64,000 bases of DNA. It comes from an uncultured Candidatus Actinomarina sp. (lineage in GTDB: Bacteria; Actinomycetota; Acidimicrobiia; Actinomarinales; Actinomarinaceae). The notes below the pieces were generated by a model. That model saw only the letters and a list, made by a program, of their open reading frames with translations, had not been told where the DNA came from and did not search any database. This document shows, piece after piece, positions 4,412 through 64,000 of the stretch (positions within the stretch are counted from its first letter, which is position 1; each line of letters begins with the position of its first letter). The stretch lies in the NCBI GenBank assembly GCA_902634185.1, contig CACPJC010000001.1, positions 1-64,000 on the forward strand, read 5' to 3'. The position numbers were made by a program, and so were the translations under genes.

Positions 4412-4413
4412 TG

Positions 4414-4487: not shown

Positions 4488-4492
4488 AAATG

Positions 4493-4783: not shown

Positions 4784-4842
4784 ATTCCTCCTCTTCAAAG
4801 GTAATTATAGACTAGTTATTGATAGATACTTAGAAAATTTTG

Positions 4843-4915
4843 CTCCGAGGGTGGGACTTGAACCCACAACCAACGGATTAACAGTCCGCTGCTCTGCCAA
4901 TTGAGCTACCTCGGA
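4843..4915 (-). tRNA. tRNA-Asn (GTT)
   Basis: TCCGAGG acceptor stem, CTGTTAA loop, GGTTCAAGTCC T-arm. Confidence 0.95.
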
Positions 4916-4938
4916 TAGCAAATTAATAATAGTATGTA

Positions 4939-8544: not shown

Positions 8545-8977
8545 TCCAAATTTTCTTCATAAGTTTTGATTCATACGTCTTTAATTTGTCATTTTTTTCA
8601 TGTGAGTAACCAATTAAATGTAAAAGCCCATGAATTACAATATATTGTAGTTCTTCAACAAAATCTTTATCGTAGATTTCTGCATTCTTTTTAATAACAT
8701 TTCGACAAATGAACATGTCACCCATATCTTCATGCATACTTTCATCTAATTGATTTATAGCTTCAATGTCGTTGTATAAAGGAAAAGACAAAACATCTGT
8801 TGGCTTGTTTGTATTAAACGTTTTTTGATTTAATTTTTTTGATTCACTTTCATTTAGAGAATGAACCGTAAAATGAAAATTTCTTGATATTTTGAAATTC
8901 TCGGAAAAAATTTTTACAGCCTGGGTTACTTTTAATTTTTCATTTTTATAAAAATAACCGTTAAAAACAATTTTCAA
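8534..8977 (-). CDS. ybeY: rRNA maturation RNase YbeY
   Basis: PTDVLSFP and HGLLHLIGYSH. Confidence 0.95.
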   Translation of the reverse strand: MKIVFNGYFYKNEKLKVTQAVKIFSENFKISRNFHFTVHSLNESESKKLNQKTFNTNKPTDVLSFPLYNDIEAINQLDESMHEDMGDMFICRNVIKKNAEIYDKDFVEELQYIVIHGLLHLIGYSHEKNDKLKTYESKLMKKIWNES

Positions 8978-8980
8978 TAT

Positions 8981-12087: not shown

Positions 12088-12428
12088 TAGAAAGCCTTCA
12101 ATTTTTCTCCTCCAATTAAATGGAGATGTATATGATAAACAGTCTGTCCACCATCATCATTAGTGTTAAATATTAATCTATAGCCACTCTCATCTATTTC
12201 ATATTTTTTTGCTAAATCTTTAGCTACTTGTATCATCTTTCCTACTAACAATGTGTCCTCATCAGATAAATTATTTATTGTATTTATTCTTTTTTTGGGA
12301 ATTATTAGAAGATGAATTCTAGCAACAGGATTTATGTCTTGAATTGAAAATATATCGTCATCTTCGTAAATTATTTCTGATTCTATTTCTTTATTTAGAA
12401 TCATCTCAAATACTGATTTTTCTACCAT
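12087..12428 (-). CDS. HIT family nucleotide-binding protein
   Basis: GQTVYHIHLHLIGG histidine triad. Confidence 0.95.
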   Translation of the reverse strand: MVEKSVFEMILNKEIESEIIYEDDDIFSIQDINPVARIHLLIIPKKRINTINNLSDEDTLLVGKMIQVAKDLAKKYEIDESGYRLIFNTNDDGGQTVYHIHLHLIGGEKLKAF

Positions 12429-22420: not shown

Positions 22421-23671
22421 TCAATTTGATTTTATTTTTATCAAATATATGGTGTATTCAAATAATTTTTGTAAAACCATTGCAGAGCTTAAAGCAATAG
22501 CGACTCCTAGAGAGGAAAAAGAATCAGATAATAAGACTGCTAAAACGAGAAATACAAAAGAGTAAACAATTCGTCCATAAGCATGAAACTGGATTAAATC
22601 AGCAAATAATAGATACTGTCTTATCCAGAAACTTAACAAATAAGTAGTGAATCCTATTAACAACACCATCATTGGCTCAAATGAATTAATAAATTCCTCG
22701 TTACCAATAAATAAAATAAGATTTCGTCCAAAAATGAAATATATTCCAAATAACAATATTGAAATTGGTAACAAAATCCGCTTTAAGAAAGAAGTTATAT
22801 TGAAATCTTTGTCCTCAGACTTTAATTTGTTTTGTAGCCAAGGATTAAATGTAACAACAAGATAATTTATAGGTTCAACTAATCTTTTTGCAAATTGATA
22901 GATTCCAACAGTCTGTATATCAACGACTATAGCTAGTAGAATTACATCAAAATGTTGTGGTATAAGACCAATAATTTGGTCATATCTAATTTTTCCATAA
23001 GAAGATCTGATGGATTTTGAATATGCTTTGAAATGTCGAATCTTGAAATCTGAGGAATCACGATATTTATTTGAGAGATATAAACCAAAAAGCCCAAAGG
23101 TAATTCCATAGATTGATTGTGCAATTAGATAGTTTTCTACACTTGGATCATTTAAAAGTAAAAATACTAATGCAATAAACCTAACTACTACACTGCTAAT
23201 TTCAAGTATTGAGTATCTTCTTAAATCATTATGAAAAATCAGTATAGATTTACTTGTTTCTGAAAAAGTCTGAATAATTCTTGTAAGTAAATAAATTAAT
23301 AGAACATTTGATAATGTTTCAATGCCAAAATAATCACCCAAAGATGAATTAATAATTATTGGATTTGTAAAAATTACAATACAAAGTAAAAAACTACCAA
23401 TTCCGGTTATGAAGTTGAAAAAGATAGATTCAAAATAAAAGTTTTTTCCATCCTTAAGAACAAGAAGATTTACATCACTATTTCTTGCATGTGAAGCACG
23501 AAAGATAAGGCTTGGTACTGCAATTAAAAGTACTACTGCACCATATTTGGCAGGTCCGAGTTGGTTAACAACAAACGAGACTTGGATTACAGAGATTATT
23601 GCAATGGCAGATTGTGAACCAATCAAATCTTTTGTTTGATTAAATATTTCTCTTATATATTTTAAGTTCAT
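22421..23671 (-). CDS. Wzx-like oligosaccharide flippase
   Basis: About 12 TM; LGPAKYG and VGIYQFAKR motifs; start moved to 23671 to avoid tRNA overlap. Confidence 0.8.
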   Translation of the reverse strand: MNLKYIREIFNQTKDLIGSQSAIAIISVIQVSFVVNQLGPAKYGAVVLLIAVPSLIFRASHARNSDVNLLVLKDGKNFYFESIFFNFITGIGSFLLCIVIFTNPIIINSSLGDYFGIETLSNVLLIYLLTRIIQTFSETSKSILIFHNDLRRYSILEISSVVVRFIALVFLLLNDPSVENYLIAQSIYGITFGLFGLYLSNKYRDSSDFKIRHFKAYSKSIRSSYGKIRYDQIIGLIPQHFDVILLAIVVDIQTVGIYQFAKRLVEPINYLVVTFNPWLQNKLKSEDKDFNITSFLKRILLPISILLFGIYFIFGRNLILFIGNEEFINSFEPMMVLLIGFTTYLLSFWIRQYLLFADLIQFHAYGRIVYSFVFLVLAVLLSDSFSSLGVAIALSSAMVLQKLFEYTIYLIKIKSN

Positions 23672-23680
23672 ATTTGTTTG

Positions 23681-23753
23681 TGGAGCTGAGGGGATTTGAA
23701 CCCCTGACCCCGTGCATGCCATGCACGTGCTCTGCCAACTGAGCTACAGCCCC
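23681..23753 (-). tRNA. tRNA-Ala (GGC)
   Basis: GGGGCTG acceptor with G3:U70; CGTGC-ATGGCAT-GCACG anticodon arm. Confidence 0.96.
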
Positions 23754-24169: not shown

Positions 24170-24580
24170 GTGAGGAGAGAGTTGACAAGAATTAGAAACC
24201 TTTTTGGCTTATTAGAGACACTTTTTAACAGCAGGCGATTGAGAACCATACTTGCTGCATTATTATTTTTTATTTTCCTATTTGGCTATCTTTTTTATGC
24301 TTCAGAACCTGATGTAAGAAACTTAGGTGATGGTATATGGTGGGCTCTAGTAACTATTACAACTGTTGGCTATGGAGATATCACACCAGTAACAACTTTA
24401 GGAAGAGTTGTGGCAAGTTCTCTTATGTTGCTTGGATTAGGATTAATTGCTACGATAACAGCAATTGTTTCAGCCAAATTTATTCAAAATTTTGTTGATC
24501 ATCACACGAATGATGATGTTCTGGAAAAACTTGATGAAATGCAACTTGAATTGGATGATATTAAGAAAAAACTTCAATAA
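24170..24580 (+). CDS. Two-TM KcsA-like potassium channel
   Basis: WWALVTITTVGYGD selectivity filter; short C-terminal coiled coil. Confidence 0.93.
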   Translation: MRRELTRIRNLFGLLETLFNSRRLRTILAALLFFIFLFGYLFYASEPDVRNLGDGIWWALVTITTVGYGDITPVTTLGRVVASSLMLLGLGLIATITAIVSAKFIQNFVDHHTNDDVLEKLDEMQLELDDIKKKLQ

Positions 24581-25140
24581 AGATTGTTATCTTTAATATA
24601 ATTTAAAATCTCTTTTGATAAATCGTCATCATTAAACTCATTTCTTTTAAGCTTATTTCTTATAGTGCTTGAACTTAAGTCAACTTTTTCGCCATCAATA
24701 AGTGAGTATTCAAATGGAAAGTACTCTTCTAAAGTCTTATTACTGTCTTTCCTTCTAAGTGCAATTAAAAAGTTAGTAAGCTCAGGTAATTTACTGTGGT
24801 TTTTCCAAGTTTTTATATTCATTGCCGTGTCAGAACCTAAGATAAAATACAAATCTTCCTTTGGATGGTCTAGTCGAAGTAGTGTTTCGTATGTATAAGA
24901 AGGATTTTCCTCAGATTTTTCTATATCGCTAATTTCAAAAAATTCAGATTCATTGATTAATATTTTTGTCATTTCAAACCTATGAAGAAATGATGTAGAA
25001 TCTTTTTTTTGCCATGGATTTCCTGAAGGAATAAAAATTACCTTGTTCAGACCAAATTGAGATATTGACCTTCTGGCTATTTCTAAATGGGCACCATGAG
25101 GAGGGTCAAAGGTTCCCCCAAGTACACCAATCTTATTCAC
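24574..25140 (-). CDS. nadD: Nicotinate-nucleotide adenylyltransferase
   Basis: GGTFDPPHGAH, SYTYET, ILGSD, SSSTIR. Confidence 0.95.
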   Translation of the reverse strand: MNKIGVLGGTFDPPHGAHLEIARRSISQFGLNKVIFIPSGNPWQKKDSTSFLHRFEMTKILINESEFFEISDIEKSEENPSYTYETLLRLDHPKEDLYFILGSDTAMNIKTWKNHSKLPELTNFLIALRRKDSNKTLEEYFPFEYSLIDGEKVDLSSSTIRNKLKRNEFNDDDLSKEILNYIKDNNLY

Positions 25141-52242: not shown

Positions 52243-54504
52243 TTATTTTGATTTGATATAGTTCAAGGCAGAACCAGCAAAAAACCAAGCAATCTGATCC
52301 TCAGATAGAGAATGATTTGCTTTGATTGTCTCTGTTTCACCATTTTCTTTTTCGAGGATAATCTCAACAGGTGTGTCAACTGCAATGTCTTTCAGACTAC
52401 CGATAGTCATTTTGTCGAACTGTTCAATCTTTTCATAATCGTTTTTGTCTTCAAAGACTAGAGGTAAAATACCTTGCTTCTTTAAGTTTGCTTCATGTAT
52501 TCGTGCAAAACTTTTTACCAACACGACCTTACAGCCTCTAAATCTCGGCTCCATTGCTGCGTGCTCTCTTGATGAGCCCTCACCATAGTTTTCATCCCCA
52601 ACAGCTACCCAGCTAACATTCTTTTCGCTGTAATTCTTTGCTATGTTTGGTAATGTATCGACTTCCTTTGTGAGTATGTTTACACCATCACCTGCTTTTT
52701 CAGCAAATGCATTATTGACTCCATTGAACAAGTTTTGTGAAATATTTTCAAGATGACCTCGGAACTGTAACCATTTACCAGCAGGAGAAATATGGTCAGT
52801 TGTACATTTTCCTTCTGCCTTCATTAAGACGCTCATTGAAACATAGTCTTCTTCATTAGGTGGAAGAAATGGGGTAAGTTTTTGAAGTCTATTTGATTCT
52901 GGATCAATTATTACTTCAACATCATCGCCTGGTGTTGGTTGAATAAATCCCTCGAGTGTTTCTTCAAAGCCTTTATTAGGTAATTCATCTGCAACAGGTG
53001 GATTTAGTAAAATTTCTTCCCCATCTTGAGTAGTAAGAGTGTCACTTAAGAAGTTAAAATCTAATGTTCCGCCAAGTGCCAAACCTATAACTGATTCAGG
53101 TGAACCAATAAATGATAGTGTCTCTGCATTTCCATCATTTCTAGCAGGAAAGTTTCTATTAAACGATGAGACGATTGAGTTACTCTCTCCTTCTTTGATG
53201 TCATCTCTTTTCCATTGACCGATACAAGGACCGCATGCATTCGCAAGAACAGTAGCTCCAATCGATTCTAAATCTTTTAAGTATCCGTCACGTTCTATAG
53301 TTGCTCTGGTTTGTTCTGAGCCAGGAGTAACCATCAAAGGTACTTTTGCCTTAAGACCGTGCTTTGCAGCTTCTCTAGCAATAAAAGCAGCTCTACCAAT
53401 ATCCTCATATGATGAATTCGTACAAGATCCAATCAATGCACTTGAGATTTTTACAGGATACTCATTGTCATTTGCATCCTTTTTTAATCCAGAAATTGGT
53501 CTAGCTAAATCTGGCGTGTGTGGTCCAACAATATGAGGCTCTAGTTCATCTAAATTAATCTCTATTACTTGATTGAAAAATTCTTCTGGGTTTTCTAAAA
53601 CTTCATCATCAGCTGTGAGTAAATCCATTCTAGAGTCTGCTAATTCAGCTATTTCATCTCTGCCGGTAGCATTTAGATAAGCACTTCCCTTTTCATCATA
53701 TGGAAATATTGAGCAAGTTGCACCAATCTCAGCACCCATATTTGTTATAGTTGCTTTTCCAGTGGTTGAAATGGTTTTTGTACCCTCTCCAAAGTATTCA
53801 ACTATTGCATTCGTTGCACCTTTAACCGTCAAGATTTCTGCAACTTTTAAAATAATGTCTTTAGGAGATGACCAGCCGCTCAAAGAACCAGTTAGCTTTA
53901 CTCCAATTAAGCTAGGTATTTTTGTGTTGAAAGGCATACCAGCCATTACATCAACTGCATCTGCACCTCCTACACCAATTGCAATCATGGATAGGCCTCC
54001 AGCGTTTGGAGTATGACTATCCGTACCGATCATCATTCCTCCTGGAAATGCATATTGTTCTAAAACTACTTGATGGATGATTCCAGCCCCTGGTCCCCAA
54101 AAGCCTATTTCATATTTTTCGGAAGCAGTTCTAAGGAAGTCAAAAACCTCTTTATGTGTCTTGTTAGCTACTTGAAGATCACTAGCTGCTCCTTCATAAG
54201 CTTGAATTAAATGATCACAGTGGACAGTTGTTGGCACTGCTGTTTCTGGAAGGTCTGCTTGCATAAATTGTAAAAGAGCCATTTGTGCTGTTGCATCTTG
54301 CATTGCAACTCTATCGGGTGCAAAGTCTCCGTAGTCTTCGCCTTTATTTAGAGAAACAGAGTTGATATCTGTTGCATGTCCAAAGAGAAGTTTTTCAGCC
54401 AGAGTGAGAGGAGCATTTTTTCTCTCTCTTAATTTCTTAATATTCTCAGTTAGATTCTCATAAACTGAAGAAACTAAACTTGCTGGTGTTACTGATAAAT
54501 CCAT
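52243..54504 (-). CDS. Aconitate hydratase (compact, mitochondrial-like type)
   Basis: DRVAMQDATAQMA, DSHTPN, IGSCTNSS, ACGPCIG, TTDHISPAG, GSSREHAA; 753 aa. Confidence 0.93.
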   Translation of the reverse strand: MDLSVTPASLVSSVYENLTENIKKLRERKNAPLTLAEKLLFGHATDINSVSLNKGEDYGDFAPDRVAMQDATAQMALLQFMQADLPETAVPTTVHCDHLIQAYEGAASDLQVANKTHKEVFDFLRTASEKYEIGFWGPGAGIIHQVVLEQYAFPGGMMIGTDSHTPNAGGLSMIAIGVGGADAVDVMAGMPFNTKIPSLIGVKLTGSLSGWSSPKDIILKVAEILTVKGATNAIVEYFGEGTKTISTTGKATITNMGAEIGATCSIFPYDEKGSAYLNATGRDEIAELADSRMDLLTADDEVLENPEEFFNQVIEINLDELEPHIVGPHTPDLARPISGLKKDANDNEYPVKISSALIGSCTNSSYEDIGRAAFIAREAAKHGLKAKVPLMVTPGSEQTRATIERDGYLKDLESIGATVLANACGPCIGQWKRDDIKEGESNSIVSSFNRNFPARNDGNAETLSFIGSPESVIGLALGGTLDFNFLSDTLTTQDGEEILLNPPVADELPNKGFEETLEGFIQPTPGDDVEVIIDPESNRLQKLTPFLPPNEEDYVSMSVLMKAEGKCTTDHISPAGKWLQFRGHLENISQNLFNGVNNAFAEKAGDGVNILTKEVDTLPNIAKNYSEKNVSWVAVGDENYGEGSSREHAAMEPRFRGCKVVLVKSFARIHEANLKKQGILPLVFEDKNDYEKIEQFDKMTIGSLKDIAVDTPVEIILEKENGETETIKANHSLSEDQIAWFFAGSALNYIKSK

Positions 54505-54542: not shown

Positions 54543-56000
54543 TTATCTGTACTCTGGACAAGTTATTTGATAATCACAATTTGAGCACCAATCACCAACA
54601 TTAAATGATGGTGATAGTGAATCATTAGGATTCCAATTAGCAATTCTCTGCGCTTTATCCTCGAATTTGTTGATGATTGAATCAAACTCACTTTCTCCAA
54701 ATTTTCTTTTCTTAAGTTTTCCACCATCTTTATTTGTATATATATGAAAGACGTAGACCTCATCCTCTTTGAGTAACAATTTTGCACCTAGTGCATATAA
54801 TTCAGCCTCTGTTAGGTCATCATTGCTTTCTTGTCCTGTTTTGAGTTCAATAACAAGACCTTTTCCTTTGTACCTTCCAACAAGATCAGCCTGGCCCATA
54901 AATGTTACTGCAACTTTATCTTCTCTTAACTCCATTTTTGAATTTGAGACTATTCCATCTTTTAATATCGAAAATCCAAGACCATACTCTGATAGTTTTA
55001 TTTCTAATTCGTTTTGATCTTCAACCTCATCATCTAAGGCTTGGATGAGTTCTTCATATTTTTTGAGTATCTGAGACGCAAATTTTTCCTCTTCATCTAC
55101 AAGCAGCTTTTTTAATCTCTCAATTTCTTTATCTCCAAAGATATCTTTATTTTTTTCAAGCATCTTTTGTGAATATGAGTGAAATTTTTGTCCAAGTTCA
55201 GCTTCAAATGATTCGTTTTCAATATCTTTTGGTATTGCATATTGCGCTCTCCAAGACGTCCATCGCTCACACGTCTCAAGATTTAACAAGTTTGACTTAC
55301 TAATTAAAATTCCTCTATTATTCGACTTTGCTTCTTGTCCATCAACTACAGGATATTGACCACACCTTGATGGTCGAGAACACATATAGCAATGGAGTCC
55401 AGGAGTTGCTTGTTTTCTATTTGTTTCAAATTCTTGAATAATATTGAAATAGTTATCAATAATTTCTTTTGAATTTTCTGGTTCCTTAATCTCATCAAAG
55501 TCATCGTGAATGAGTTGAGCTGTTAGAAATGTTTCACCCTCTAACTTAGTTTCTGCCACAATAGCCCTATCGATATCTTCAATATCAGACACTCCTGCCT
55601 TAAGCTTTATGTATTCAGTGTTGTCTTCATCTTCAAGTTGATACTGAAAGGATGTGTACATACCTTTCTCTTCACCATCAATCTCTTTGATGATTTCTTG
55701 TCTGTAAAAATCTATATTGACCTGAGGTAGTGGTTTGGGAACCAAACTTCTAAATCGCTCAAAAAGTTCAGACATTATTTTTTTTTGTAATGGGTCATAA
55801 AATTGAAAATTTTCTTCTGCAACCTTAATAGCAACCTCATCATCTGCTTCATTAAGTAACCAATCAGATATTGCGTTATTTATACCGCTCCATCGATCTA
55901 AGCGAGAATTTGGTGTGAGAGTTTTTGGACCAATAGATTGATGACACTCTGAAATTTTTTTAACATCGTGTGTTTTATAGAACTTAATGCCCTGGTTCAT
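54543..56000 (-). CDS. PD-(D/E)XK nuclease family protein (Cas4/AddB-like) with two tandem modules
   Basis: C-half: TCER, G..FH, GQADL, IELKTG, LYA, CSNCDYQITC; N-half ends in HCYMCSRPSRC. Confidence 0.8.
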   Translation of the reverse strand: MNQGIKFYKTHDVKKISECHQSIGPKTLTPNSRLDRWSGINNAISDWLLNEADDEVAIKVAEENFQFYDPLQKKIMSELFERFRSLVPKPLPQVNIDFYRQEIIKEIDGEEKGMYTSFQYQLEDEDNTEYIKLKAGVSDIEDIDRAIVAETKLEGETFLTAQLIHDDFDEIKEPENSKEIIDNYFNIIQEFETNRKQATPGLHCYMCSRPSRCGQYPVVDGQEAKSNNRGILISKSNLLNLETCERWTSWRAQYAIPKDIENESFEAELGQKFHSYSQKMLEKNKDIFGDKEIERLKKLLVDEEEKFASQILKKYEELIQALDDEVEDQNELEIKLSEYGLGFSILKDGIVSNSKMELREDKVAVTFMGQADLVGRYKGKGLVIELKTGQESNDDLTEAELYALGAKLLLKEDEVYVFHIYTNKDGGKLKKRKFGESEFDSIINKFEDKAQRIANWNPNDSLSPSFNVGDWCSNCDYQITCPEYR

Positions 56001-56043
56001 ACTCTAAAGATAATTGAAAGTTTCTTGAGATCATGTATTTCAA
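55953..56043. repeat. 91-bp direct repeat, copy 1 (promoter plus first 16 codons)
   Basis: 82/91 identical to 56371-56461 by manual alignment; 44-bp perfect core 55972-56015. Confidence 0.95.
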
Positions 56044-56103
56044 TATAATTGTCTGTTTTTACAGGATAGTTATTAAATGTAATTTGACGTGTAAAAAAGG
56101 CAA

Positions 56104-56418
56104 TTAGCAACAAACTTGAGAATCAGAATTCACTTCTTCTAAAATCTCAGCGTTAGGATAATAACCATCTGGATAGGTAGGACAAACAGCTTGAATTGAG
56201 CCATCTTCAAGTTTTAGTACCATACCATCTAATTTTTTATCATTCATATATGTAACAGCATCATTTTTTGACTCAAATGGTTTTGAACAACGCTCAACTA
56301 TCCAGTCTTTTGAATTTAATGATTCATTCATAGATTTTTTATTATACTGTCGTTTAAATTTAATATCCTTAATTTTTTTAACTTCATACGTTTTATAGAA
56401 CTTAATGCCCTGGTTCAT
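56104..56418 (-). CDS. Hypothetical protein sharing N-terminus MNQGIKFYKT with the adjacent nuclease
   Basis: 104-aa ORF; possible alternative internal start MNESLN. Confidence 0.65.
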   Translation of the reverse strand: MNQGIKFYKTYEVKKIKDIKFKRQYNKKSMNESLNSKDWIVERCSKPFESKNDAVTYMNDKKLDGMVLKLEDGSIQAVCPTYPDGYYPNAEILEEVNSDSQVCC

Positions 56419-56461
56419 ACTCTAAAGATAATTCAAATTTTCGTAAGAGCATGTATTTCAA
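56371..56461. repeat. 91-bp direct repeat, copy 2
   Basis: Perfect core 56390-56433; 418 bp from copy 1. Confidence 0.95.
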
Positions 56462-56468
56462 ACTTTAT

Positions 56469-56708
56469 TTAAATCATGTCTTGTATAGGGGGAATAATTA
56501 AAAATACACCATTTGTGTTTATTTTTTTAATTTTACATTTCTTACCAAGAGCAAGTCCTGTAACTACATCTATAATTCTCTGTCGATCTTCTTTCTTTGT
56601 AACTCCTCGTATATCAAGAGAAGTATTTTTTTCACCTATCTTTGAAGAATTTAATTTATAAATATCATCAATGGAGTTCATTATTAAAATTTCTAGTTCA
56701 TCATTCAT
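56469..56708 (-). CDS. SepF-like C-terminal domain protein
   Basis: RQRIIDVVTGLALG...IKKINTNGVFLIIP resembles the SepF core R..DF.SG......I.KV...VFLL.P. Confidence 0.65.
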   Translation of the reverse strand: MNDELEILIMNSIDDIYKLNSSKIGEKNTSLDIRGVTKKEDRQRIIDVVTGLALGKKCKIKKINTNGVFLIIPPIQDMI

Positions 56709-56770
56709 TATTGAATTATCTCACAAAATAAAAGTGAGCTTCATAGTGTAAAAATTTATATCAATAAAAT

Positions 56771-59209
56771 TTACTTTAAAGTTTCTATTTCATCCGGACA
56801 GAATTTTAAAGATTTTTGATTAGGAAGAGACAAGGTAATTGAGGATTTATCAACAAGTTCTTCAAATGTGGTTTTATTTTTTATTATGCCTACGGGATTA
56901 TCTGTATTAATAATTGTTTCAAGTGGTGTATATAAAAATTTTATGAGGGCTATCTCAAAATCTGTGAAGTTTACAGAATTATTTTTTGTTACGTTTTCTG
57001 TACTCATTAATCCACTTTTGATACATGATGAATGGTGCAGCCCTAGTGAGTGGCCTAGCTCATGAATTAAAACGTGATCTCTCTCCAAACCATATAGGTC
57101 AGCATCAATCCAAATGCTTTCCTCTATCAAGTTATAAAACCCTGTATAACCAGCACATGAGCCAGTCCCCCAAGCGTCACCATATGGTCTTCTGCTCAGA
57201 CATTCTCTAAGCTCAATAGGAATTGTTATTGCTTCACTGTTTGTTGAATAACTAAAGAAATCATAACCAATAATTTCGTTTATTACTCTGACGAACTCTT
57301 TTACAATTCTCTCATCTTTATCGGTAAAATCACCATCGAAACCGTACACAACAGGACTATCTTGCTTGAAAATGTCTCTATTTACATATCCGGAGTCTCG
57401 ACTGTATCCACCTGGATCGTATGTATGAGTTGAGCCAATTATAAGATCTTCAATGCTAAATTGTTTTACTAGTTCATCTGTGACTTCGGTTATATCCTCT
57501 TTGTAGTCATCGTGAATTATTGTATTTGGAAAAAACTCTTCTCTTTCTCTATTTTCCCAGTCACCCCAAATAAAGATATCCCAGAGATTTGCCCAACTAA
57601 TTGAGATTTCTGGCCAACCGTGAGCCCATCCTCTAACAACATATGGTTGGAATGAAAACGTTAATCCGTCATCATTTATCGATACAGCATTTAGATTTCT
57701 ATAACTCCAAGGCTGAGTTTTATCATCTTCTAAAGTGGGGATTTTTCCCTCATCTACTCTAAGAATATCTTCTAGCCTATTATCGAGTAATTCAAGCCAT
57801 AGTGGGTTATAACCATCTTTTTCAAAGCCTTGTTCATTTAAAAGCTTATCGGACATAATATCTTTGAGTTCAATTTTTGTACATGTAGAAAGATCATAAT
57901 TATAAGTTTTATAGAAATAGTCACCATGATTACCCCCTGTAAAAGTATGAATTTGGAAAATTACAGATATATAATTCATCCTTTCTTCAGGAACCATTCC
58001 ATATTCATATAAATAAAAACCATCCTCGGGTGGGTTGTTATGATGACCTAGATTTTTCCCATGGACTTCAAAAGAGGATTGACTACTGACTAAATAATTA
58101 AAAACAGAGTAAAAATCTGCCCATGTTGGGTGGTCCCAGGCGTTATCTGATATATCAAATCCAACAAGACGATAGTCGCCTGTTAAGCCTGAGGCCCAGT
58201 GGTCTCCCCACTCAAGATCATCATGAAAATTAAGAGTGGTTGATCGGGCATAGTCTTCAAATACAGTATTTATCTCTTCAAAACAGGATTCATACATGGA
58301 TGCATCGTCAATTGAGTTTTCGTATAGCTCGTTCCACACATTCAGATTCTCAATATTTAATACTGGATACCTAAATGTGTTATTCCAAGTTGTATTGGAA
58401 TCATAAGTCCCAACTTCACTTAAACAAAAAACGTCAGGCGTAAGTTCCTCTTCACCCTCTTCTTTTGAATATTCGTTCCAATCATCCACATGCCACTTTA
58501 AAATCCATTCATCTTCAAAACATTCCTCTGGAGAATCAAAATGTTGTTCCCAAATTAATCCAGATGGAGTCTTATACATTGTGATGTATCCATCTTCTAC
58601 CATTGGTGATCTAATGTGATCTCTTACGTAATCTCCTTCACCACTGATATTCATATTGAAAAGATTATTTTTACATGTAAATAAAGCCTCTTCGCCCTCG
58701 ACATCTTTTGCATATATTTCAATATTCAACATGTCTTTACCCTGTAGACCCTCTGCATAGGCATTGATTACAACTTCACCGTCCAATTTGTAACCAACAC
58801 CTTGATCTAATTCCATTCTTTTTTTGAGATTAATGTCTAAATCACCTGTGCTGTCGGTGAACTTGATATCAAATTTTTTAGGTCCATTTGGGAAAGAGTA
58901 TTGAATGACAAATTCATATGATTCATATAAACCAAGATTTTCATCACAAAGATTTAAATTAATGAGTGGTTTTTGATTTTCATCAAGAATAAACTCGTTT
59001 TGCTCTGCAGCAAGATCTGATAATTCGTTTATCATTTCATCTGCAAAATCTAAATCACTTTGTAATTGATAATTCTCTTCAATTAAATCTTCTATGATTT
59101 CATTTTCAAAAAGAGCAACTTGGACAATAAAAAAAATAAATAATGTGTAAAAAATAAATAATGATTTCCAAGAAGGTGGTCTTTTTAATGCATTAATAAA
59201 ACTATTCAT
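56771..59209 (-). CDS. Membrane-anchored protein with RsiV/DUF3298-like domain and C-terminal metzincin metalloprotease
   Basis: N-terminal TM; FTGGNHG..TYNYDL and DGLTFSFQPY...GWPEISISW; HELGHSLGLHH plus LM Met-turn. Confidence 0.75.
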   Translation of the reverse strand: MNSFINALKRPPSWKSLFIFYTLFIFFIVQVALFENEIIEDLIEENYQLQSDLDFADEMINELSDLAAEQNEFILDENQKPLINLNLCDENLGLYESYEFVIQYSFPNGPKKFDIKFTDSTGDLDINLKKRMELDQGVGYKLDGEVVINAYAEGLQGKDMLNIEIYAKDVEGEEALFTCKNNLFNMNISGEGDYVRDHIRSPMVEDGYITMYKTPSGLIWEQHFDSPEECFEDEWILKWHVDDWNEYSKEEGEEELTPDVFCLSEVGTYDSNTTWNNTFRYPVLNIENLNVWNELYENSIDDASMYESCFEEINTVFEDYARSTTLNFHDDLEWGDHWASGLTGDYRLVGFDISDNAWDHPTWADFYSVFNYLVSSQSSFEVHGKNLGHHNNPPEDGFYLYEYGMVPEERMNYISVIFQIHTFTGGNHGDYFYKTYNYDLSTCTKIELKDIMSDKLLNEQGFEKDGYNPLWLELLDNRLEDILRVDEGKIPTLEDDKTQPWSYRNLNAVSINDDGLTFSFQPYVVRGWAHGWPEISISWANLWDIFIWGDWENREREEFFPNTIIHDDYKEDITEVTDELVKQFSIEDLIIGSTHTYDPGGYSRDSGYVNRDIFKQDSPVVYGFDGDFTDKDERIVKEFVRVINEIIGYDFFSYSTNSEAITIPIELRECLSRRPYGDAWGTGSCAGYTGFYNLIEESIWIDADLYGLERDHVLIHELGHSLGLHHSSCIKSGLMSTENVTKNNSVNFTDFEIALIKFLYTPLETIINTDNPVGIIKNKTTFEELVDKSSITLSLPNQKSLKFCPDEIETLK

Positions 59210-59816
59210 TATTTACCCACCTAACAATCTCTTTTGCAAATTTTTGTCCACCTCTATGACTTGGTTCTATGGGGTTAGCATAATCTTCAGATGTGACAAA
59301 AATTTCTCTTAACTCAAGCACCTCTATGTTGTATTTGCTCCCGATCCTATAAATAGAGTCATTAAAAAATGAGACCATCGTTCTTGCTGATTCTGCAATA
59401 GAATCAAATTCCTCTGAACCAACTAAATCCCCTTCATATACTGTGCATAGAAGTGGAGTTGCCCTGTAGTCAGTTAGTTTCTGCACAATGGTCTCATAAT
59501 TATTATTTATCGGAAGTAACATTTGCCTTAATTGTTCAAGAACAAGGTTTGGCGAATACCTAAAATCCTGAGTCAAAAAGCTGATATTGTTAAGAAGATC
59601 ATTTCCACCAACAGACAATACTGTATGAGTATCCTCTTCAGATACATGTTTTAGCTGGCTACTTAAAACATGATCTGTGGTTGCTCCATCAAGTGCTATT
59701 TGTAAAAATTCATCATTAGAAATATGTTCTAAATGTTCCAGTACAGAGAGCTCATCAGATTCAACATAAACCTTATTGTCAATGATGGAATCGCCTAAGA
59801 GTGTAACTTTGTTCAT
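59202..59816 (-). CDS. SGNH/GDSL hydrolase
   Basis: LLGDSI, DGAT, SVGGND, DYANPIEPS..GG. Confidence 0.88.
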   Translation of the reverse strand: MNKVTLLGDSIIDNKVYVESDELSVLEHLEHISNDEFLQIALDGATTDHVLSSQLKHVSEEDTHTVLSVGGNDLLNNISFLTQDFRYSPNLVLEQLRQMLLPINNNYETIVQKLTDYRATPLLCTVYEGDLVGSEEFDSIAESARTMVSFFNDSIYRIGSKYNIEVLELREIFVTSEDYANPIEPSHRGGQKFAKEIVRWVNNE

Positions 59817-60046
59817 ATTCCTCTATGAACACGACCAATATGATAACCATCACAATATCTGCATTTGTAGTCTTTTATGAGTTCCTTAGCTCTAAAAGAA
59901 GCGAGTCTTGCAGATTGTAATGCGAGTAAAGGATTGTCGTATTTAGTTTTTCTTTTACAACTCCAACATTTATCACATAAACAATATGAATTTGAATACT
60001 CTGACCAGCAAATAGGTTGTTTTAGTGTGATACGTTGCCGGGGCAT
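59813..60046 (-). CDS. Small Cys-rich putative Zn-binding protein
   Basis: C.RK.KY...A......YKCRYCDGYHIG pattern; AAGGA RBS; ATGA overlap with the next gene. Confidence 0.7.
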   Translation of the reverse strand: MPRQRITLKQPICWSEYSNSYCLCDKCWSCKRKTKYDNPLLALQSARLASFRAKELIKDYKCRYCDGYHIGRVHRGI

Positions 60047-60055
60047 TTATTCCTT

Positions 60056-60139
60056 TTTTAGTAACTTTCACTATAAATATAGCGAATAATAGTGAAAAAC
60101 ACAATTAATAAATTATATTTTTAGTACTTTACACTATTA
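60056..60139. promoter_or_regulatory. Three putative NrtR operator boxes (60056-60076, 60087-60107, 60119-60139)
   Basis: TTTTAGT-AACTTTC-ACTATAA, TAATAGT-GAAAAAC-ACAATTA, TTTTAGT-ACTTTAC-ACTATTA: 21-bp GT-N7-AC pseudo-palindromes directly upstream of nrtR. Confidence 0.78.
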
Positions 60140-60157
60140 AGATAATTTTTCTATACT
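60128..60157 (+). promoter_or_regulatory. Putative nrtR promoter (leaderless)
   Basis: TTTACA-N18-TATACT-N6-ATG(60164); -35 lies inside operator 3. Confidence 0.6.
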
Positions 60158-60163
60158 TTGCAT

Positions 60164-60982
60164 ATGAGTAAAGGTTATCCCCTATCACTGAATGCAGTCA
60201 ACGTAGTCTGTTTTAAGATCGACTGGATTGAGATGGATTTAAAAGTTCTCTTAATCAAAAGAAGTATCTCCCCGCATAAAAACAAATGGTCTCTTCCTGG
60301 TGGTTTTGTGAATGAAAATGAAAGTATTGAAGAGGCAGCACATCGTAAATTTGTTGAGGAGACTGGCATTGCACCTGCATATATCAATCAGTTCAGAACG
60401 TATAGTGATGTTTCTCGTGATAAAAGACCAGTAAAAGGTCAAAAGGTTCGTGTTGTTACTACTGCATTTAATGCAATTTACACTAGTACTGACGATCCAG
60501 TACTTTCTGATGAAAGTTCAGATTATCGATGGTTTAAGATACCTAGAAGATTTATTGATAGATCAATTCCAAAATTGGCTTTTGATCATTACAAGATACT
60601 GACTGATGCAGCTAACCGACTAAGAGTTGATTTAGAATACAGTGGTCTTGCAACCAGATTTCTACCTCAACACTTTACATTAGGACAAATACAAGATGTC
60701 TATGAAATTATTTGGGAAGTTGAATTAGATCCAGCAAACTTTAGAGATAAATTAACAAATGTTGAGGGATGGATAAAAGAAACTAAATCTGGTCCAAAAG
60801 ACGCTGAACCTCGCAGAGGAAAACCTCCAACATGGTATAAAGAGCATGACATTCCAAAATTTGATAGGATGATATCTAATCCAAATGGAACTGTAATCAG
60901 AGAAAAAGAGTCTGAATATCAAAAAAACTTAGACAATTTAACTGGAGAAATCAAAATATCTGACATAAAATCGAAAGAGTAA
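60164..60982 (+). CDS. nrtR: NrtR family transcriptional regulator (Nudix plus winged HTH)
   Basis: VLLIKR, WSLPGGFV, RKFVEETG, LAFDH..I, FTL.QIQ.VYE, DPANFR, RGKPP. Confidence 0.88.
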   Translation: MSKGYPLSLNAVNVVCFKIDWIEMDLKVLLIKRSISPHKNKWSLPGGFVNENESIEEAAHRKFVEETGIAPAYINQFRTYSDVSRDKRPVKGQKVRVVTTAFNAIYTSTDDPVLSDESSDYRWFKIPRRFIDRSIPKLAFDHYKILTDAANRLRVDLEYSGLATRFLPQHFTLGQIQDVYEIIWEVELDPANFRDKLTNVEGWIKETKSGPKDAEPRRGKPPTWYKEHDIPKFDRMISNPNGTVIREKESEYQKNLDNLTGEIKISDIKSKE

Positions 60983-61221
60983 TGGAGATTATCCTTATTG
61001 CTTTAGTGATAACAATATATTTAATTAATTTTTCAAAAAATATAACTCCAGATACGAAGATAAAAAATACAAAAATAAAACAAAGACCTAAACCAAGGAC
61101 TTATAGACCAGGTCAATTAAAAAAGAAGCTCATAATAAGTCAAGAAAGCAAAGTTGAACCAATTACTTGGGAATCATTTGTTTTTTTGAATACTGTGGGT
61201 CCGAAAATCGTAAAGAAGTAA
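60982..61221 (+). CDS. Small basic protein with N-terminal TM/signal segment
   Basis: 79-aa ORF, start overlaps nrtR stop (TAATG). Confidence 0.55.
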   Translation: MEIILIALVITIYLINFSKNITPDTKIKNTKIKQRPKPRTYRPGQLKKKLIISQESKVEPITWESFVFLNTVGPKIVKK

Positions 61222-61231
61222 GGTGTTGTAA

Positions 61232-63751
61232 ATGACTGAAGAAGAGAAATTGACTAACCAAAAAATTAGAGAGTTTAGAAAGCGAATCTGTGATAGAGAG
61301 AATATACGGTTAATGAAGTTGTTAAATAATATAGATATTAAGAATATTTCTACAAAACCTTGGCCTACATCAGAAGAGGATTTGATATCAAAGATAGAAA
61401 ATTTAGAAATTATAAAACAGTTTTGGAATGAATTTCTACAAGAACTATCAGAAATATATGGTTATCAAATAAGTGGATCAAGCGACATCATACAAAACTT
61501 TGTTGAGGACTTAGATATTGATCAGGCTTCAGAATCAGAGGAAAAAATAAATTTAGAACTTGAAGGTTCTCCTGAGTTTTTAGAAGAAGATCTAGAGGAT
61601 ATTGATTATTCAGGAGAGATAGGTTTTGTTAATGATGAAACTATTACAGATGAATATGAATTTGAACCTATTAAGAAAATTTATAGCGGCAACATTGATA
61701 TCGACACAAAAAACGCAAGATATTTTAATATTTTTAGTTCTATTTTTTTCGTAAAAATATGGTGGAAACTTTGGAAGGAAAAAGCTTTCTTTAATGAATT
61801 TAGTAAAGACTACCCGCTCACAAAACAGCAAAAAGTTTCTGTATTGTCTAATGAAAATAGAAACTTAGTTGTAGCTGGTGCTGGCACAGGCAAAACACAT
61901 CTAATGATCGCCAAAGCTGGTTATCTTTTGAAGAAAATGGGGATAAAAGAACAGGATATTTTGCTGTTGGCTTTTAATAACGATGCAGCTGAACAGCTGA
62001 GAAATCGCGGTAAAGAGAGGTTGGATGCTAATTTACATGCATATACATTCCACTCATATGGAAACAAGCTAAGCAAAAGTTTAAGCCCAAATAAAAATTT
62101 AAACCCTGATGAAGAAGATCAGAAAATTAAAAAACCTAAGTGGATACAAACAACTCTTGATACTTTACCTCTAGATCATCCAATAATGAAAAAAGTTCTC
62201 CGTTATTTTTCTGAGTATTTAGTACCACCACCCTCACCAAATATGGACTACAAATCTCTGAATGAATATCAATCGTATGTTAAAAATATAGAGAAACGTT
62301 CTCTTTCTGGAGATAAAGTAAAAAGCTATGGTGAATTGTTAATTGCTAACTTTTTAACAATAAATGGTATTGACTTCGAATATGAGGCAAAATTTAATTC
62401 CGAGAACATTAGATATACTTACAGGCCCGATTTCACGATATACAAAGACAGGGAAAGATCTGAAGAAATAGTTGTAGAGTTTTTCGGGATTGATAGAGAT
62501 GGAAATGTTAAACCAGGGATTTTGCCTGATAGATATAAGAATCTTACAACAAAAAAAATAGAGCTCCATAAAAATGAAAAAACCGACTTTATCGATTTGT
62601 ACTACTACGAACAGCAAGAGGGGTTATTATTGAAAAAACTTGAAACGGAACTTAAAAATAGAGGAGTTACTTTCAAGAAATTGGACGATGAAGAGTTGTT
62701 AAAGCGTTTTAACGATAGTCAATATTTCACCATCTTTTCCCAGCTGTGTAGTGAGTTTCTTGAGCAATACAAATCTAACCAACACAACATCAAAGATTTA
62801 TTGATTAAGGCTGAGGAAGATGAAAGAAGTATCGCATTTCTACATATCTTTGAATGGATTAAAAATCAATACAATGCCTATTTGGATTCAAATGATCTTA
62901 AAGACTTTTCTGACATGATAAACGATGGTACAAAAGCTTTGTTGGAAGCTAAGTATCAAACTGAGTGGAAATGGATCATTGTTGATGAGTTTCAAGATAT
63001 CTCTGCAGGAAGACTTAGGTTTATTAATGCGATATTGGAACAAAATCCTGATGCAAAACTTATGGTAGTTGGAGATGATTGGCAGTCTATATATAGATTT
63101 GCAGGTAGTGATATTAATTTAGTAACTAAATTCGAAAAATATTTTGGAAGATCTGTTGAATTTAAATTAACAAAATCTTTCAGGTTTAACAGTCAGATAA
63201 AAGATTTAAGTCAAAAGTTTATCCAAGCAAATCCAATGCAGAAAAGAAAAAATATAACTGTTGATCGTACAGTTGAACCATATAGGAATTGGGTTCACTG
63301 GTCAGACCAAGGTCTTATTCCAGAAAAGAGAAGTAAGAAAATTGTAGAGATTGTTAAGAAAATGAAAGAAGAATTAAAACTTCAAGGAGAGTTGCTTATT
63401 TTGGCAAGATACAATCATAATCTACCTAAAGGTCCTCAATTAAAAGAAATTGGTGAGGTATGGGGTGAGAACTTTAGATATATGACTGTACATAGAGCTA
63501 AGGGACAAGAGGCTGATTATGTTTTGTTGGTTGATTTGATTTCAGGGGTTTTTGGTTTTCCAGCAATACAATCTGAAGATCCTATTTTAAATCTAGTATT
63601 AGCTTCTGCAGGGCCTGAAGATTTATTAATGTATGGAGAAGAAAGAAGACTTCTCTATGTTGCAATGACAAGAGCCCGAGAAGAATTTCATGTTATATCA
63701 GATGTCCCACAACCATCTATATTTGTAAACGAGATTTTAGAGTATGAGTAA
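61232..63751 (+). CDS. UvrD/helicase IV-like SF1 helicase with internal nuclease-like insertion
   Basis: AGAGTGKT, LAFN, TFHS, VDEFQD, VGDDWQSIYRF, TVHRAKGQE, EERRLLYVAMTRA; insert KSYGELLIANFL...YRPDF...VEFFG. Confidence 0.9.
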   Translation: MTEEEKLTNQKIREFRKRICDRENIRLMKLLNNIDIKNISTKPWPTSEEDLISKIENLEIIKQFWNEFLQELSEIYGYQISGSSDIIQNFVEDLDIDQASESEEKINLELEGSPEFLEEDLEDIDYSGEIGFVNDETITDEYEFEPIKKIYSGNIDIDTKNARYFNIFSSIFFVKIWWKLWKEKAFFNEFSKDYPLTKQQKVSVLSNENRNLVVAGAGTGKTHLMIAKAGYLLKKMGIKEQDILLLAFNNDAAEQLRNRGKERLDANLHAYTFHSYGNKLSKSLSPNKNLNPDEEDQKIKKPKWIQTTLDTLPLDHPIMKKVLRYFSEYLVPPPSPNMDYKSLNEYQSYVKNIEKRSLSGDKVKSYGELLIANFLTINGIDFEYEAKFNSENIRYTYRPDFTIYKDRERSEEIVVEFFGIDRDGNVKPGILPDRYKNLTTKKIELHKNEKTDFIDLYYYEQQEGLLLKKLETELKNRGVTFKKLDDEELLKRFNDSQYFTIFSQLCSEFLEQYKSNQHNIKDLLIKAEEDERSIAFLHIFEWIKNQYNAYLDSNDLKDFSDMINDGTKALLEAKYQTEWKWIIVDEFQDISAGRLRFINAILEQNPDAKLMVVGDDWQSIYRFAGSDINLVTKFEKYFGRSVEFKLTKSFRFNSQIKDLSQKFIQANPMQKRKNITVDRTVEPYRNWVHWSDQGLIPEKRSKKIVEIVKKMKEELKLQGELLILARYNHNLPKGPQLKEIGEVWGENFRYMTVHRAKGQEADYVLLVDLISGVFGFPAIQSEDPILNLVLASAGPEDLLMYGEERRLLYVAMTRAREEFHVISDVPQPSIFVNEILEYE

Positions 63752-64000
63752 CCGATTAGTTTCAGTTTGTCCATGTTGTTCAGAAAATGAACCAAAAAAA
63801 TGTCCTTCTTGTCATGATGGAAATATTAAAAAAGTTGATTTTGTTGAAAACATGTTTTTTTATGGTTGTTCAAATTATCCATTTTGTACTCATACTTACA
63901 AAGCATGTAACTATTGCAAAAAAGCTTTAAGTATTATTGACAGTAAAAAAAGTCTGTATTTATGTAGCGATGAAACCTGTAAAGGTAGCGTTGAAAAATG
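63744..64000 (+). CDS. Topoisomerase-type C4 zinc-ribbon protein, 3'-truncated by window edge (not in ORF track)
   Basis: MSNRLVSVCPCC...KCPSCHDG...FYGCSNYPFCTHT.KACNYC...LCSDETC; ATG overlaps helicase stop by 8 nt. Confidence 0.82.
   Translation, partial: MSNRLVSVCPCCSENEPKKCPSCHDGNIKKVDFVENMFFYGCSNYPFCTHTYKACNYCKKALSIIDSKKSLYLCSDETCKGSVEK

Follow-up and report, generated by a model that had tools for sequence, protein, structure and literature searches.

The 64,000-nt stretch of DNA analysed here (the window), from contig CACPJC010000001.1 of an uncultured Candidatus Actinomarina sp., carries near its right end a gene for a Nudix and winged-helix repressor of the NrtR family (nrtR, 60164-60982, plus strand). 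In front of this gene lies a promoter region with three conserved operator boxes, from which a conserved operon runs leftward, and at its stop codon begins a strain-variable island of defence genes. The explanation which we favour, and which we regard as somewhat probable from the sequence and its conservation, is that this is an autoregulated divergent promoter region through which NrtR would control the operon on its left as well as the genes at the start of the defence island. The regulation of anti-phage genes is poorly known outside the WYL-type regulators, and almost nothing is known of it in the streamlined marine bacteria that dominate the surface oceans. In addition, the Actinomarinales have been described as possessing very few regulators (PMC7771536).

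For comparison, 13 related loci (L001 to L013) were used, which were confirmed out of 57 pattern matches in a scan of one genome per species. Eight of them belong to Candidatus Actinomarina, L007 is assigned to the Acidimicrobiia, L008 to the Actinomycetota, and L011 is an Actinomarina whose NrtR is 52% identical to that of the window. The remaining two (L005 and L010) are short contigs in bins named Bdellovibrionota and Crocinitomicaceae. Their nrtR is 74–78% identical to that of the window, and the BglII-like nuclease and methylase that they carry are 95–98% identical to those of L006; both are probably mis-binned Actinomarina contigs. On the 1.01-Mb contig of L011 the open reading frames (ORFs) after nrtR (1700-6000) are short and broken and nrtR itself is split, which suggests long-read frameshift errors.

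Domains were searched for with Pfam, equivalogs with NCBIfam, defence families with PADLOC and phage families with PHROGs, and the presence of the window proteins in the 13 loci was scored by tblastn. Boxes were counted in the 11 of the 13 loci that include the upstream gap.

Three conserved operators in the divergent promoter region

The gap between the two divergent gene sets comprises 117 bp (60047-60163) if nrtR is taken to start at the ATG at 60164. This start is most likely the correct one, rather than the TTG at 60158, because close homologues begin with MSKGYP or MxERYP. Within the gap lie three 21-bp palindromes of the NrtR type, namely Box 1 (60056-60076, TTTTAGTAACTTTCACTATAA), Box 2 (60087-60107, TAATAGTGAAAAACACAATTA), which is the weakest of the three, and Box 3 (60119-60139, TTTTAGTACTTTACACTATTA). 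The GT of their GT-N7-AC cores stands at 60061, 60092 and 60124, giving spacings of 31 and 32 bp, which correspond to three helical turns and place the boxes on the same face of the DNA. Boxes 1 and 3 also form a direct repeat with 81% identity, 63 bp apart. Palindromes of 21 bp with a GT-N7-AC core are the published signature of NrtR, for which tandem sites are known as well (PMC2330246).

A promoter scan predicts the nrtR promoter at 60128-60157 on the plus strand, with TTTACA and TATACT separated by an 18-nt spacer (10 of 12 consensus positions matched). Its -35 element (60128-60133) lies within Box 3, and its -10 element (60152-60157) ends 6 nt 5' of the ATG. A TATACT or TATAAT is also found 6–8 nt 5' of the nrtR start in related loci, and because of this short and conserved distance the nrtR mRNA is likely to be leaderless. 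On the minus strand, a -10 candidate (TATAGT, 60075-60070) overlaps Box 1 and a -35 candidate (TTTTCA, 60098-60093) overlaps Box 2, which would place Box 1 over the predicted leftward start and the 5' leader; it ends 9 nt from the leftward ATG, the A of which is at 60046. With such an arrangement, a single protein on one face of the DNA could repress both promoters. The gap, the starts of the boxes at 60056, 60087 and 60119, their spacing, the 9 nt to the leftward ATG and the overlap of Box 3 with the -35 had all been described in the original prediction, made from the letters and a list of ORFs, and are confirmed here from the sequence.

The bare core TAGT-N7-ACTA with at most one mismatch is not enriched in the window (25 occurrences versus 27.95 ± 4.89 in shuffled sequences), therefore the case for the boxes rests on the 21-bp pattern, on its clustering and on its conservation. 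With a symmetrised matrix built from 17 unique boxes, sites of at least 16.5 bits occur in the 64 kb at the three boxes only, as compared to 0.08 per shuffled window, and each of the 11 scanned loci likewise yields its own three boxes and nothing else. To avoid circularity, the matrix was retrained on 14 boxes from other species, excluding the window, L001 and L012. The window boxes still rank first to third with 17.8–18.0 bits, and the best non-box site in the window reaches 11.9 bits.

Three GT-N7-AC boxes spaced by 31 and 32 bp are present in all 11 loci that include the gap, L011 among them, as the proposed regulation of orthologous genes would require. Across the 12 sequences, GT and AC are invariant and the seven nucleotides between them vary. 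The boxes are thus a clear phylogenetic footprint, with number, position and spacing kept across the genus.

A defence island begins at the nrtR stop codon

To the right of the operators, conservation ends with nrtR itself. Colinearity with the closest genomes, L001 and L012, breaks off at 60951 and 60969, respectively (blastn), which places the left border of a strain-variable island at 60951-60982. Counted per 50 bp, identity declines from 98–100% to 70–88% past about 60400, within nrtR, and to 28–50% from 60950 onwards; such a gradient is expected beside a region that is frequently exchanged. The three genes that follow nrtR in the window, coding for a small membrane protein (TM79), a helicase and a Zn-ribbon protein, are each found in none of the 13 related loci, including the genomes whose left arm is 96–100% identical.

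In the related genomes the same position is occupied by other genes, identified by Pfam and PADLOC. In L001, nrtR is followed by an unknown 227-aa (amino acid) gene, a type IIG enzyme of the Mrr-ResIII kind and two methylases, and in L012 by a convergent PDC-M16A helicase with HRDC, a Schlafen AlbA_2 protein, PDC-M33A/C and HNH. L002 has an unknown 276-aa gene, a MutH-like type II nuclease with a C5 methylase, DUF6339 and GmrSD_C, and L003 an unknown 279-aa gene and an N4/N6 methylase. L004 carries DarT (1.9e-13) with a NADAR antitoxin of the DarT1 type (2.4e-78) at 10821-12298, and further on a Dam methylase, HATPase_c_3 and a PLD-SNF2 helicase. A BglII-like nuclease and a fused methylase are present in L006, Schlafen AlbA_2, Hhe/PDC-S37 and a type I restriction-modification system in L007, a RecD-like helicase, DrmB, DrmA, NERD-UvrD and DrmE_C in L009, and a DarG-like macrodomain (10828-11571, 5.9e-54) in L013.

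Altogether, nine mutually unrelated cargo sets or first genes follow nrtR, among them restriction-modification systems of types I, II and IIG and the DISARM genes DrmA, DrmB and DrmE_C of L009. The site thus has the features by which a defence island is recognised, i.e. a conserved flank, unrelated cargo among close genomes and an enrichment of known defence families, and the nrtR stop codon is the left border of a defence-island hot spot. The toxin-antitoxin-like genes of L004 and L013 stand in contrast to the total absence of toxin-antitoxin systems that has been reported for the order (PMC7771536).

Island counts were made on the related genomes with crude ORF calls; L011 was left out owing to its broken ORFs, and L005 and L010, whose cargo is that of L006 at 97–98% identity, were counted apart from the 10 annotated cases, to which they add two further co-directional first genes. 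Of the first island genes in the 10 annotated cases, 9 are co-directional with nrtR, compared to 17 of 52 later island ORFs (33%). The binomial probability is 3e-04 against this background and 0.011 against p = 0.5, values which overstate independence given the kinship of the loci and the crude ORF calls. In 8 of the 10 cases the gap between nrtR and the first island gene measures -8 to +9 nt, several of the starts overlapping the nrtR stop as ATGA or TAATG. No terminator-like site was found on the plus strand of the window between 60164 and 64000. It is therefore plausible, judging from this arrangement, that the first island genes are co-transcribed with nrtR.

It is possible, but in our view rather doubtful, that NrtR controls only itself and the leftward operon, the island standing beside nrtR by architectural accident, with promoters of its own or constitutive expression, at a tolerated recombination hot spot where the coding strand switches. 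The left arm alone co-occurs with nrtR, the contents of the island are unrelated between genomes and 35 of the 52 ORFs past the first lie on the opposite strand. In L012 the first island gene is even convergent with nrtR, and L007 has a gap of 63 nt between the two genes. In addition, the lineage packs its genes tightly, with a reported median spacer of 2 bp (PMC7771536), and because tight co-directional packing is the rule, adjacency is weak evidence of functional coupling. Together with the overstated probabilities given above, these points weigh against a control of the island by NrtR. Weak promoter-like matches within the 3' end of nrtR (60846-60971) would also agree with separate expression, but they are fewer than in shuffled sequences (22 versus 35.8). 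The directional bias of the first gene, its overlap with or abutment on the nrtR stop and the lack of a terminator-like site 3' of nrtR in turn argue for read-through, and the first island genes are kept within the proposed regulon.

The NrtR regulator and its effector

The regulator possesses both domains of its family, a Nudix domain (PF00293, 2.8e-18, residues 27-128) and a C-terminal NrtR_WHD (PF21906, 5.8e-11, 42.8 bits with a cut-off of 27, residues 167-227). Its Nudix box reads G49-x5-E55-x7-R63-K64-F-V-E67-E68-T-G70 and is thus the degenerate RK..EE form which the original prediction had recognised when it assigned the protein to the NrtR family. The 27 family members compared have K or I at position 64 and differ from one another at position 67 (R[K/I]..xE). 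A search for homologues found 1176, of which the close ones all come from marine data. Among proteins of solved structure, the top sequence matches are AraR of Bacteroides (BtAraR, 5bs6, 1.4e-21) and NrtR of Shewanella oneidensis (SoNrtR, 3gz5, 2.4e-21), with both domains aligned.

To compare ligand contacts, the residue roles given in PMC4666351 were carried via the PDB sequence alignments onto the list of residues invariant in the family (the chain index minus 3 gives the published numbering). R35, R87, R90 and H144 are invariant, and their counterparts in our mapping are R41 and R98 of SoNrtR and R34, R86 and H131 of BtAraR. R35, R87 and H144 are the residues that contact sugar and phosphate. 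R90 pairs with R98 of SoNrtR only after manual regapping; in the HMMER alignment, R98 stands opposite a Lys. Where F15 of SoNrtR stacks on adenine, the window protein has an aromatic residue, at a position extrapolated beyond the aligned block. The effector is likely to be a ribose-containing nucleotide, and ADP-ribose appears as the leading candidate.

NAD and arabinose are also known as effectors of regulators in the NrtR family (PMC4666351), and it is accordingly conceivable, if rather unlikely, that the NrtR-like fold found here senses another ligand, be it NAD as in NdnR, a free pentose as in AraR or some other metabolite. In that case the leftward operon, with its extracellular protease and esterase, would serve metabolism or the scavenging of nutrients in a highly auxotrophic cell and have no link to NAD cleavage or phage attack. 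Several observations speak for such a reading. The arabinose sensor AraR is level with NrtR as the best PDB match, and full conservation is confined to the sugar-binding triad. Of the residues with which SoNrtR contacts the alpha-phosphate, N43 is replaced by Ile37 and K76 by Glu68 (the canonical Nudix Glu), and Y10 of SoNrtR has no counterpart in the window protein. The NCBIfam equivalog model for NrtR (NF050029) scores 108.5 bits, well under its cut-off of 400 bits, effectors are reported to differ within the family (PMC4666351), and a preprint describes auxotrophy of Actinomarina for Arg, His and Trp (10.64898/2026.04.03.716425).

On the other hand, the Nudix residues E55, R63 and E68 are kept together with the basic residues R35 and R90 that face the diphosphate site, whereas AraR is described as filling the diphosphate space with hydrophobic side chains (PMC4666351). 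No sugar-utilisation gene was detected nearby in the Pfam scans, and enzymes of ADP-ribose metabolism stand directly after nrtR in 2 of the 10 annotated cases (L004 and L013). We retain ADP-ribose as the preferred, though provisional, effector.

In agreement with the original prediction of a non-NAD locus, neither the 64-kb window nor any of the 11 scanned loci holds a site besides the three boxes, and thus none in front of a gene for NAD synthesis or salvage, and Pfam scans of the window and of the arms of its relatives revealed no NAD gene in either arm. The only gene of an NAD type noticed in the window is a CTP_transf_like ORF (24574-25140), which lacks a box and follows obg, proB and proA; because of this context it appears to be nadD.

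The conserved leftward operon

Three genes on the minus strand, with overlapping starts and stops (59202/59209 and 59813/59816), constitute the operon that diverges from nrtR. The first codes for Cys77, a Cys/His-rich protein of 77 aa (59813-60046), the second for an SGNH/GDSL hydrolase of 204 aa (59202-59816; Pfam Lipase_GDSL, 8.2e-07) and the last for a membrane-anchored protein of 812 aa (56771-59209), in which Pfam recognises an RsiV/PdaC-like DUF3298 and a metzincin domain. Cys77 is the most constant partner of nrtR, being present in 11 of the 13 loci, followed by the SGNH hydrolase and the metzincin C-terminus with 10 each; those loci without a left-arm match also lack enough upstream sequence. 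In L001 and L012 the left-arm proteins are 96–100% identical to those of the window.

Cys77 matches nothing in Pfam, NCBIfam or PADLOC. Its family comprises 46 clusters, all from metagenome collections and none with a Pfam family or an informative name, and it is confined to the Actinomarina lineage. Seven residues (C13, C24, C27, C30, C62, C65 and H69) do not vary among the 10 genomic copies. A first AlphaFold2 run with 10 sequences reached a mean predicted local distance difference test score (pLDDT) of 59.6 and was too weak to use, but a model from 37 sequences attained 74.2, with residues 31-70 at 86–95. Compared by Foldseek with the PDB, this model has no match at E <= 0.001. In BFVD, it resembles small uncharacterised phage proteins, many of them from actinobacterial phages, two of which carry fused helix-turn-helix (HTH) domains; the best match has an E value of 3.3e-04, template modelling scores of 0.57 and 0.62 and a root-mean-square deviation of 1.0 over 46 columns. 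Likewise, only unnamed viral clusters were retrieved from the ESM Atlas (0.90–0.91), which is a weak lead.

The SGNH hydrolase, which has no signal peptide, is 51–53% identical in the relatives and 96–98% in L001 and L012. The metzincin protein has an N-terminal hydrophobic segment and the motif HExxHxxGxxH, and its Pfam matches to DUF3298 (1.1e-05, 26.8 bits) and Peptidase_M10 (7.4e-07, 29.6 bits) both lie barely above the cut-offs. Its C-terminal protease part is 97–98% identical in L001 and L012 and 25–29% in the other relatives, where the protein has about 490 aa and is of the DUF2927/M10 type. In seven loci (L002, at 8242-9690, L003, L004, L006, L009, L011 and L013) a Cys/His-rich ORF of 461-487 aa is inserted between Cys77 and the SGNH hydrolase. 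It is missing from the window, L001, L012, L007 and L008, and has no match in Pfam, PHROGs or the Atlas (nothing at or above 0.9).

Proposed mechanism

According to the reading favoured here, NrtR dimers would fill the three sites cooperatively. Occupancy of Box 3 would block the -35 of the leaderless nrtR promoter, and Boxes 1 and 2 would cover the region from -35 to +1 of the leftward promoter. The repressor would be freed from the DNA by an effector that contains ribose, most probably ADP-ribose. Leftward de-repression would then give rise to Cys77, a phage-like and presumably Zn-binding protein, to a cytoplasmic SGNH hydrolase and to a membrane-anchored extracellular metzincin. Rightward de-repression would act on nrtR itself, and transcription running on past its stop codon would extend to the gene or genes joined to it in the first slot of the island. 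If an ADP-ribose sensor indeed gates this slot, the breakdown of NAD+ would be tied directly to the transcriptional induction of immunity.

A bolder version would make NrtR an ADP-ribose-sensing master switch, both of a hot-swappable defence slot at its stop codon and of a genus-wide response consisting of Cys77, an esterase and a surface metzincin. Any gene that came to lie at the nrtR stop codon, be it DarT-NADAR, a macrodomain, a restriction nuclease, a Schlafen-like protein or, in the window, the module of membrane protein, helicase-nuclease and Zn-ribbon, would thereby obey one signal. This signal would be generated upon cleavage of NAD+ or removal of ADP-ribosyl marks during phage attack, and the switch would turn on the esterase and the surface metzincin together with Cys77, here a Zn-ribbon derived from phages. 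We consider this version unlikely. If it were true, a very abundant streamlined ocean bacterium would command an inducible immune and envelope response through a single regulator.

Beyond the points raised in the previous sections, three others weaken the favoured reading. That the leftward operon serves an envelope or surface response is guesswork on our part and held with low confidence. Helicase IV, which the helicase in the window resembles, is a housekeeping-type helicase in E. coli. Finally, PADLOC assigned no defence system to the cargo of the window, its matches among the 10 window proteins scanned being generic helicase (GajB, RTasHel), Cas4 and DruK domains only, and the helicase matches having no partner protein.

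That the boxes are not NrtR sites at all, and instead represent AT-rich promoter elements, sites of another factor or replication-related repeats at the strand switch, would account for the chance frequency of the bare core in an AT-rich window, for the resemblance of the half-sites to -10 hexamers and for the flip of both gene strand and GC skew at about 60 kb, but it is very unlikely in view of the invariant GT and AC, the variable N7 and the fixed 31/32-bp spacing in 12 sequences, the 21-bp palindromic shape described as typical of the family (PMC2330246), the position of the boxes in nrtR's own promoter region and the low score of the next site in the window (11.9 bits).

Genes to the right of nrtR in the window

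In the window itself, the island opens with TM79 (60982-61221, plus strand, from ORF reading), a protein of 79 aa whose tail is basic and whose single hydrophobic segment lies at the N-terminus; its ATG overlaps the nrtR stop (TAATG, 60982/60982). It has no family match in Pfam, PADLOC, NCBIfam or PHROGs. The second gene (61232-63751, plus strand) codes for a helicase-IV-like superfamily 1 (SF1) helicase of 839 aa with a nuclease-like insert (UvrD-helicase, 2.7e-40). The third (63744-64000, plus strand), which overlaps the helicase stop by 8 nt (63744/63751) and is cut by the end of the window, codes for a topoisomerase-type C4 Zn-ribbon protein whose match to Zn_ribbon_Top1 (6.2e-07, 29.5 bits) stays under the 32-bit cut-off. 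The mostly overlapping start and stop codons that had been pointed out for both arms are hence borne out at four junctions.

The best NCBIfam model for the helicase is the helicase IV equivalog NF008276 with 335.8 bits, under its cut-off of 543, and the likeness to helicase IV is one at the family level only. Its residues 290-500 gave no Pfam match even at E <= 0.5, and at this threshold its N-terminus, TM79, Cys77 and a 482-aa ORF of the relatives likewise yielded nothing of use. The insert of about 200 aa matches PHROG families of homing and intron nucleases (2e-05 and 3e-05), lending modest support to a nuclease part. The gene identities given in the original prediction are consequently upheld by Pfam for the helicase, the SGNH hydrolase and the RsiV-like/metzincin protein and, below the cut-off, for the Zn-ribbon, whereas the nuclease part of the helicase depends on PHROGs.

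The helicase family is very large (of the candidates scored, 7258 proteins reach E <= 0.001) and spans many phyla as well as plasmids. Copies with 75–98% identity occur in marine data, and homologues with 35% identity are found on Acinetobacter plasmids, in one case beside a Lit exclusion gene. Since by our count 37 of the 120 helicase homologues listed carry a fused Zn_ribbon_Top1 (PF01396), the helicase and the separate Zn-ribbon ORF look like a split form of a common architecture. In PADLOC, the helicase matches GajB models with up to 4.3e-33. No GajA was found among the 10 window proteins scanned, the window ending at 64000 and genes further to the right lying outside the scan, and the matches thus fall short of Gabija. 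The three genes are most likely an accessory module for DNA-targeting defence or repair and not a fixed partner of NrtR.

The original prediction had seen in both arms one fixed system triggered by ADP-ribose, in which the helicase and surface arms are dedicated partners of NrtR. In its favour, both arms flank the operators in the window, with overlapping genes, and relatives of NrtR are reported to respond to ADP-ribose (PMC2330246). This explanation is hardly tenable, as homology to the closest relatives stops at the end of nrtR (60951-60969), the three rightward genes recur in none of the 13 loci and the helicase family is so widespread. Of the co-occurrence that it implied, the left arm (10–11 of 13 loci) holds and the right arm does not. 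The proposed defence setting stands in so far as the slot after nrtR is a defence-island hot spot in the relatives, but no system can be named for the window's own cargo.

Other features of the window

Between the left arm and an aconitase of 753 aa (52243-54504; PF00330, 2.7e-133; PF00694, 2e-35), which is 98–99% identical in L001 and L012, lies a PD-(D/E)XK protein of 485 aa (54543-56000) that is 97% identical in the same two genomes. The latter matches PF12705 (1.3e-12), has a Cas4-like C-terminal Cys cluster and gives weak PADLOC matches to Cas4 and DruK. As for the aconitase, a preprint describes Actinomarina as lacking this enzyme at a strict detection threshold (10.64898/2026.04.03.716425).

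An ORF of 104 aa (56104-56418), absent in L001 and L012, is bracketed by a 91-nt direct repeat (55953-56043 and 56371-56461), the copies of which share 90% identity at a distance of 418 bp. The first 18 residues of this ORF copy the N-terminus of the 485-aa PD-(D/E)XK protein, and it seems that a small cassette was inserted or duplicated here, whereby the 5' end of that gene was copied together with its upstream region. No PHROG match was obtained for this ORF, the SGNH hydrolase, TM79, a SepF-like ORF or a 468-aa ORF.

All ORFs of at least 120 aa with a family match between 564 and 60046 lie on the minus strand, and strand as well as the sign of the GC skew change at the nrtR gap. The change may mark a boundary related to replication, or it may simply reflect the coding strand at the edge of the island, GC skew not being separable from the coding strand in the window. 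Further to the left, a tRNA-Ala(GGC) predicted by ARAGORN (23680-23753) overlaps the first 43 nt of a minus-strand ORF of 433 aa without a Pfam match (22421-23722); the tRNA may be a false prediction, or else the true start of the ORF lies further inside. An Rfam search over 55500-64000 gave a single match inside the helicase gene, which with 35 bits against a threshold of 65.2 was taken as chance. The idea that the first 46 kb of the window represent the published glycosylation island was dropped, as they contain mostly core housekeeping genes.

Comparison with known systems

The NrtR repressors of NAD metabolism in Shewanella oneidensis, Synechocystis and Mycobacterium smegmatis share with the window protein the Nudix and winged-helix domains and the degenerate Nudix box, and their regulation is described as relying on the same palindromes, on autoregulation from a divergent region and on tandem sites (PMC2330246, PMC6800001). 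They differ in that they have one or two sites and control NAD genes, whereas three phased sites and no linked NAD gene are found here; in addition, the window protein misses the cut-off of their equivalog. Bacteroides AraR, the best sequence match of solved structure, has the same Arg/Arg/His triad for sugar binding, but it has lost the acidic and basic Nudix residues that are kept in the window protein, near whose gene no pentose-utilisation genes occur.

NrtR regulons without NAD genes have been described before, namely nrtR1-draG-SCO1765 in Streptomyces and nrtR2<>nrtX-nrtY, whose function is given as unknown, in the group Actinobacteria-2b, Proteus and Hahella (PMC2330246; Rodionov et al. 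2008). As here, a divergently transcribed actinobacterial NrtR paralogue stands in the Streptomyces and Actinobacteria-2b cases beside unknown or ADP-ribose-related genes (PMC2330246). The regulon of Streptomyces nrtR1 and draG differs by its ADP-ribosylglycohydrolase, which the window locus does not have.

As to the helicase, members of the DNA helicase IV (HelD) family have the same UvrD-like SF1 core, with a Zn-ribbon fused in some homologues; the window version is distinguished by its nuclease-like insert of about 200 aa, the separate Zn-ribbon and the small membrane protein encoded upstream.

The WYL regulators BrxR and CapW are likewise reported as one-component repressors that head diverse and swappable defence systems (PMC9122601, PMC9122589, PMC11662680). 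Their sensor is a WYL domain, in contrast to the Nudix domain found here, so that the presumed signal differs. Moreover, nrtR belongs to the core genes, keeps its place at the border of the island and does not travel with the system.

A further parallel is provided by the conflict systems surveyed by Iyer, Burroughs, Anantharaman and Aravind (2022), in which Nudix-HTH factors were predicted to sense ADP-ribose and to gate systems whose variable additions include Macro, NADAR, restriction nucleases and helicases (PMC9503650). These systems are centred on an ADP-ribosylglycohydrolase (ARG), usually accompanied by a phosphatase, and are described as having the same kind of Nudix-HTH negative regulator and a conserved core with tightly coupled variable genes (PMC9503650), and the cargo coupled tightly to nrtR comprises DarT-NADAR (L004), a macrodomain (L013), a BglII-like nuclease (L006) and helicases (window and L009). 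No ARG, phosphatase or chaperone was found in the Pfam scans of the window arms or the arms of the relatives. The core here consists instead of Cys77, the SGNH hydrolase and the metzincin, and what varies is an entire defence island of the chromosome, with complete restriction-modification systems and DISARM.

In our literature search, no paper linked NrtR with the term 'defense island'. The 2020 paper on the Actinomarinales reports a restriction-modification island in two genera (PMC7771536), and the Actinomarina preprint (10.64898/2026.04.03.716425) mentions neither Nudix nor restriction. The regulation of conflict systems by Nudix-HTH factors is thus known as a prediction since 2022 (PMC9503650), and this prediction would gain a clean example with a simple three-operator switch if NrtR gates the first slot of the island by sensing ADP-ribose. 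New, even under a modest reading, are a conserved NrtR regulon without NAD genes and a previously undescribed defence hot spot of Actinomarina with nrtR as its fixed left border.

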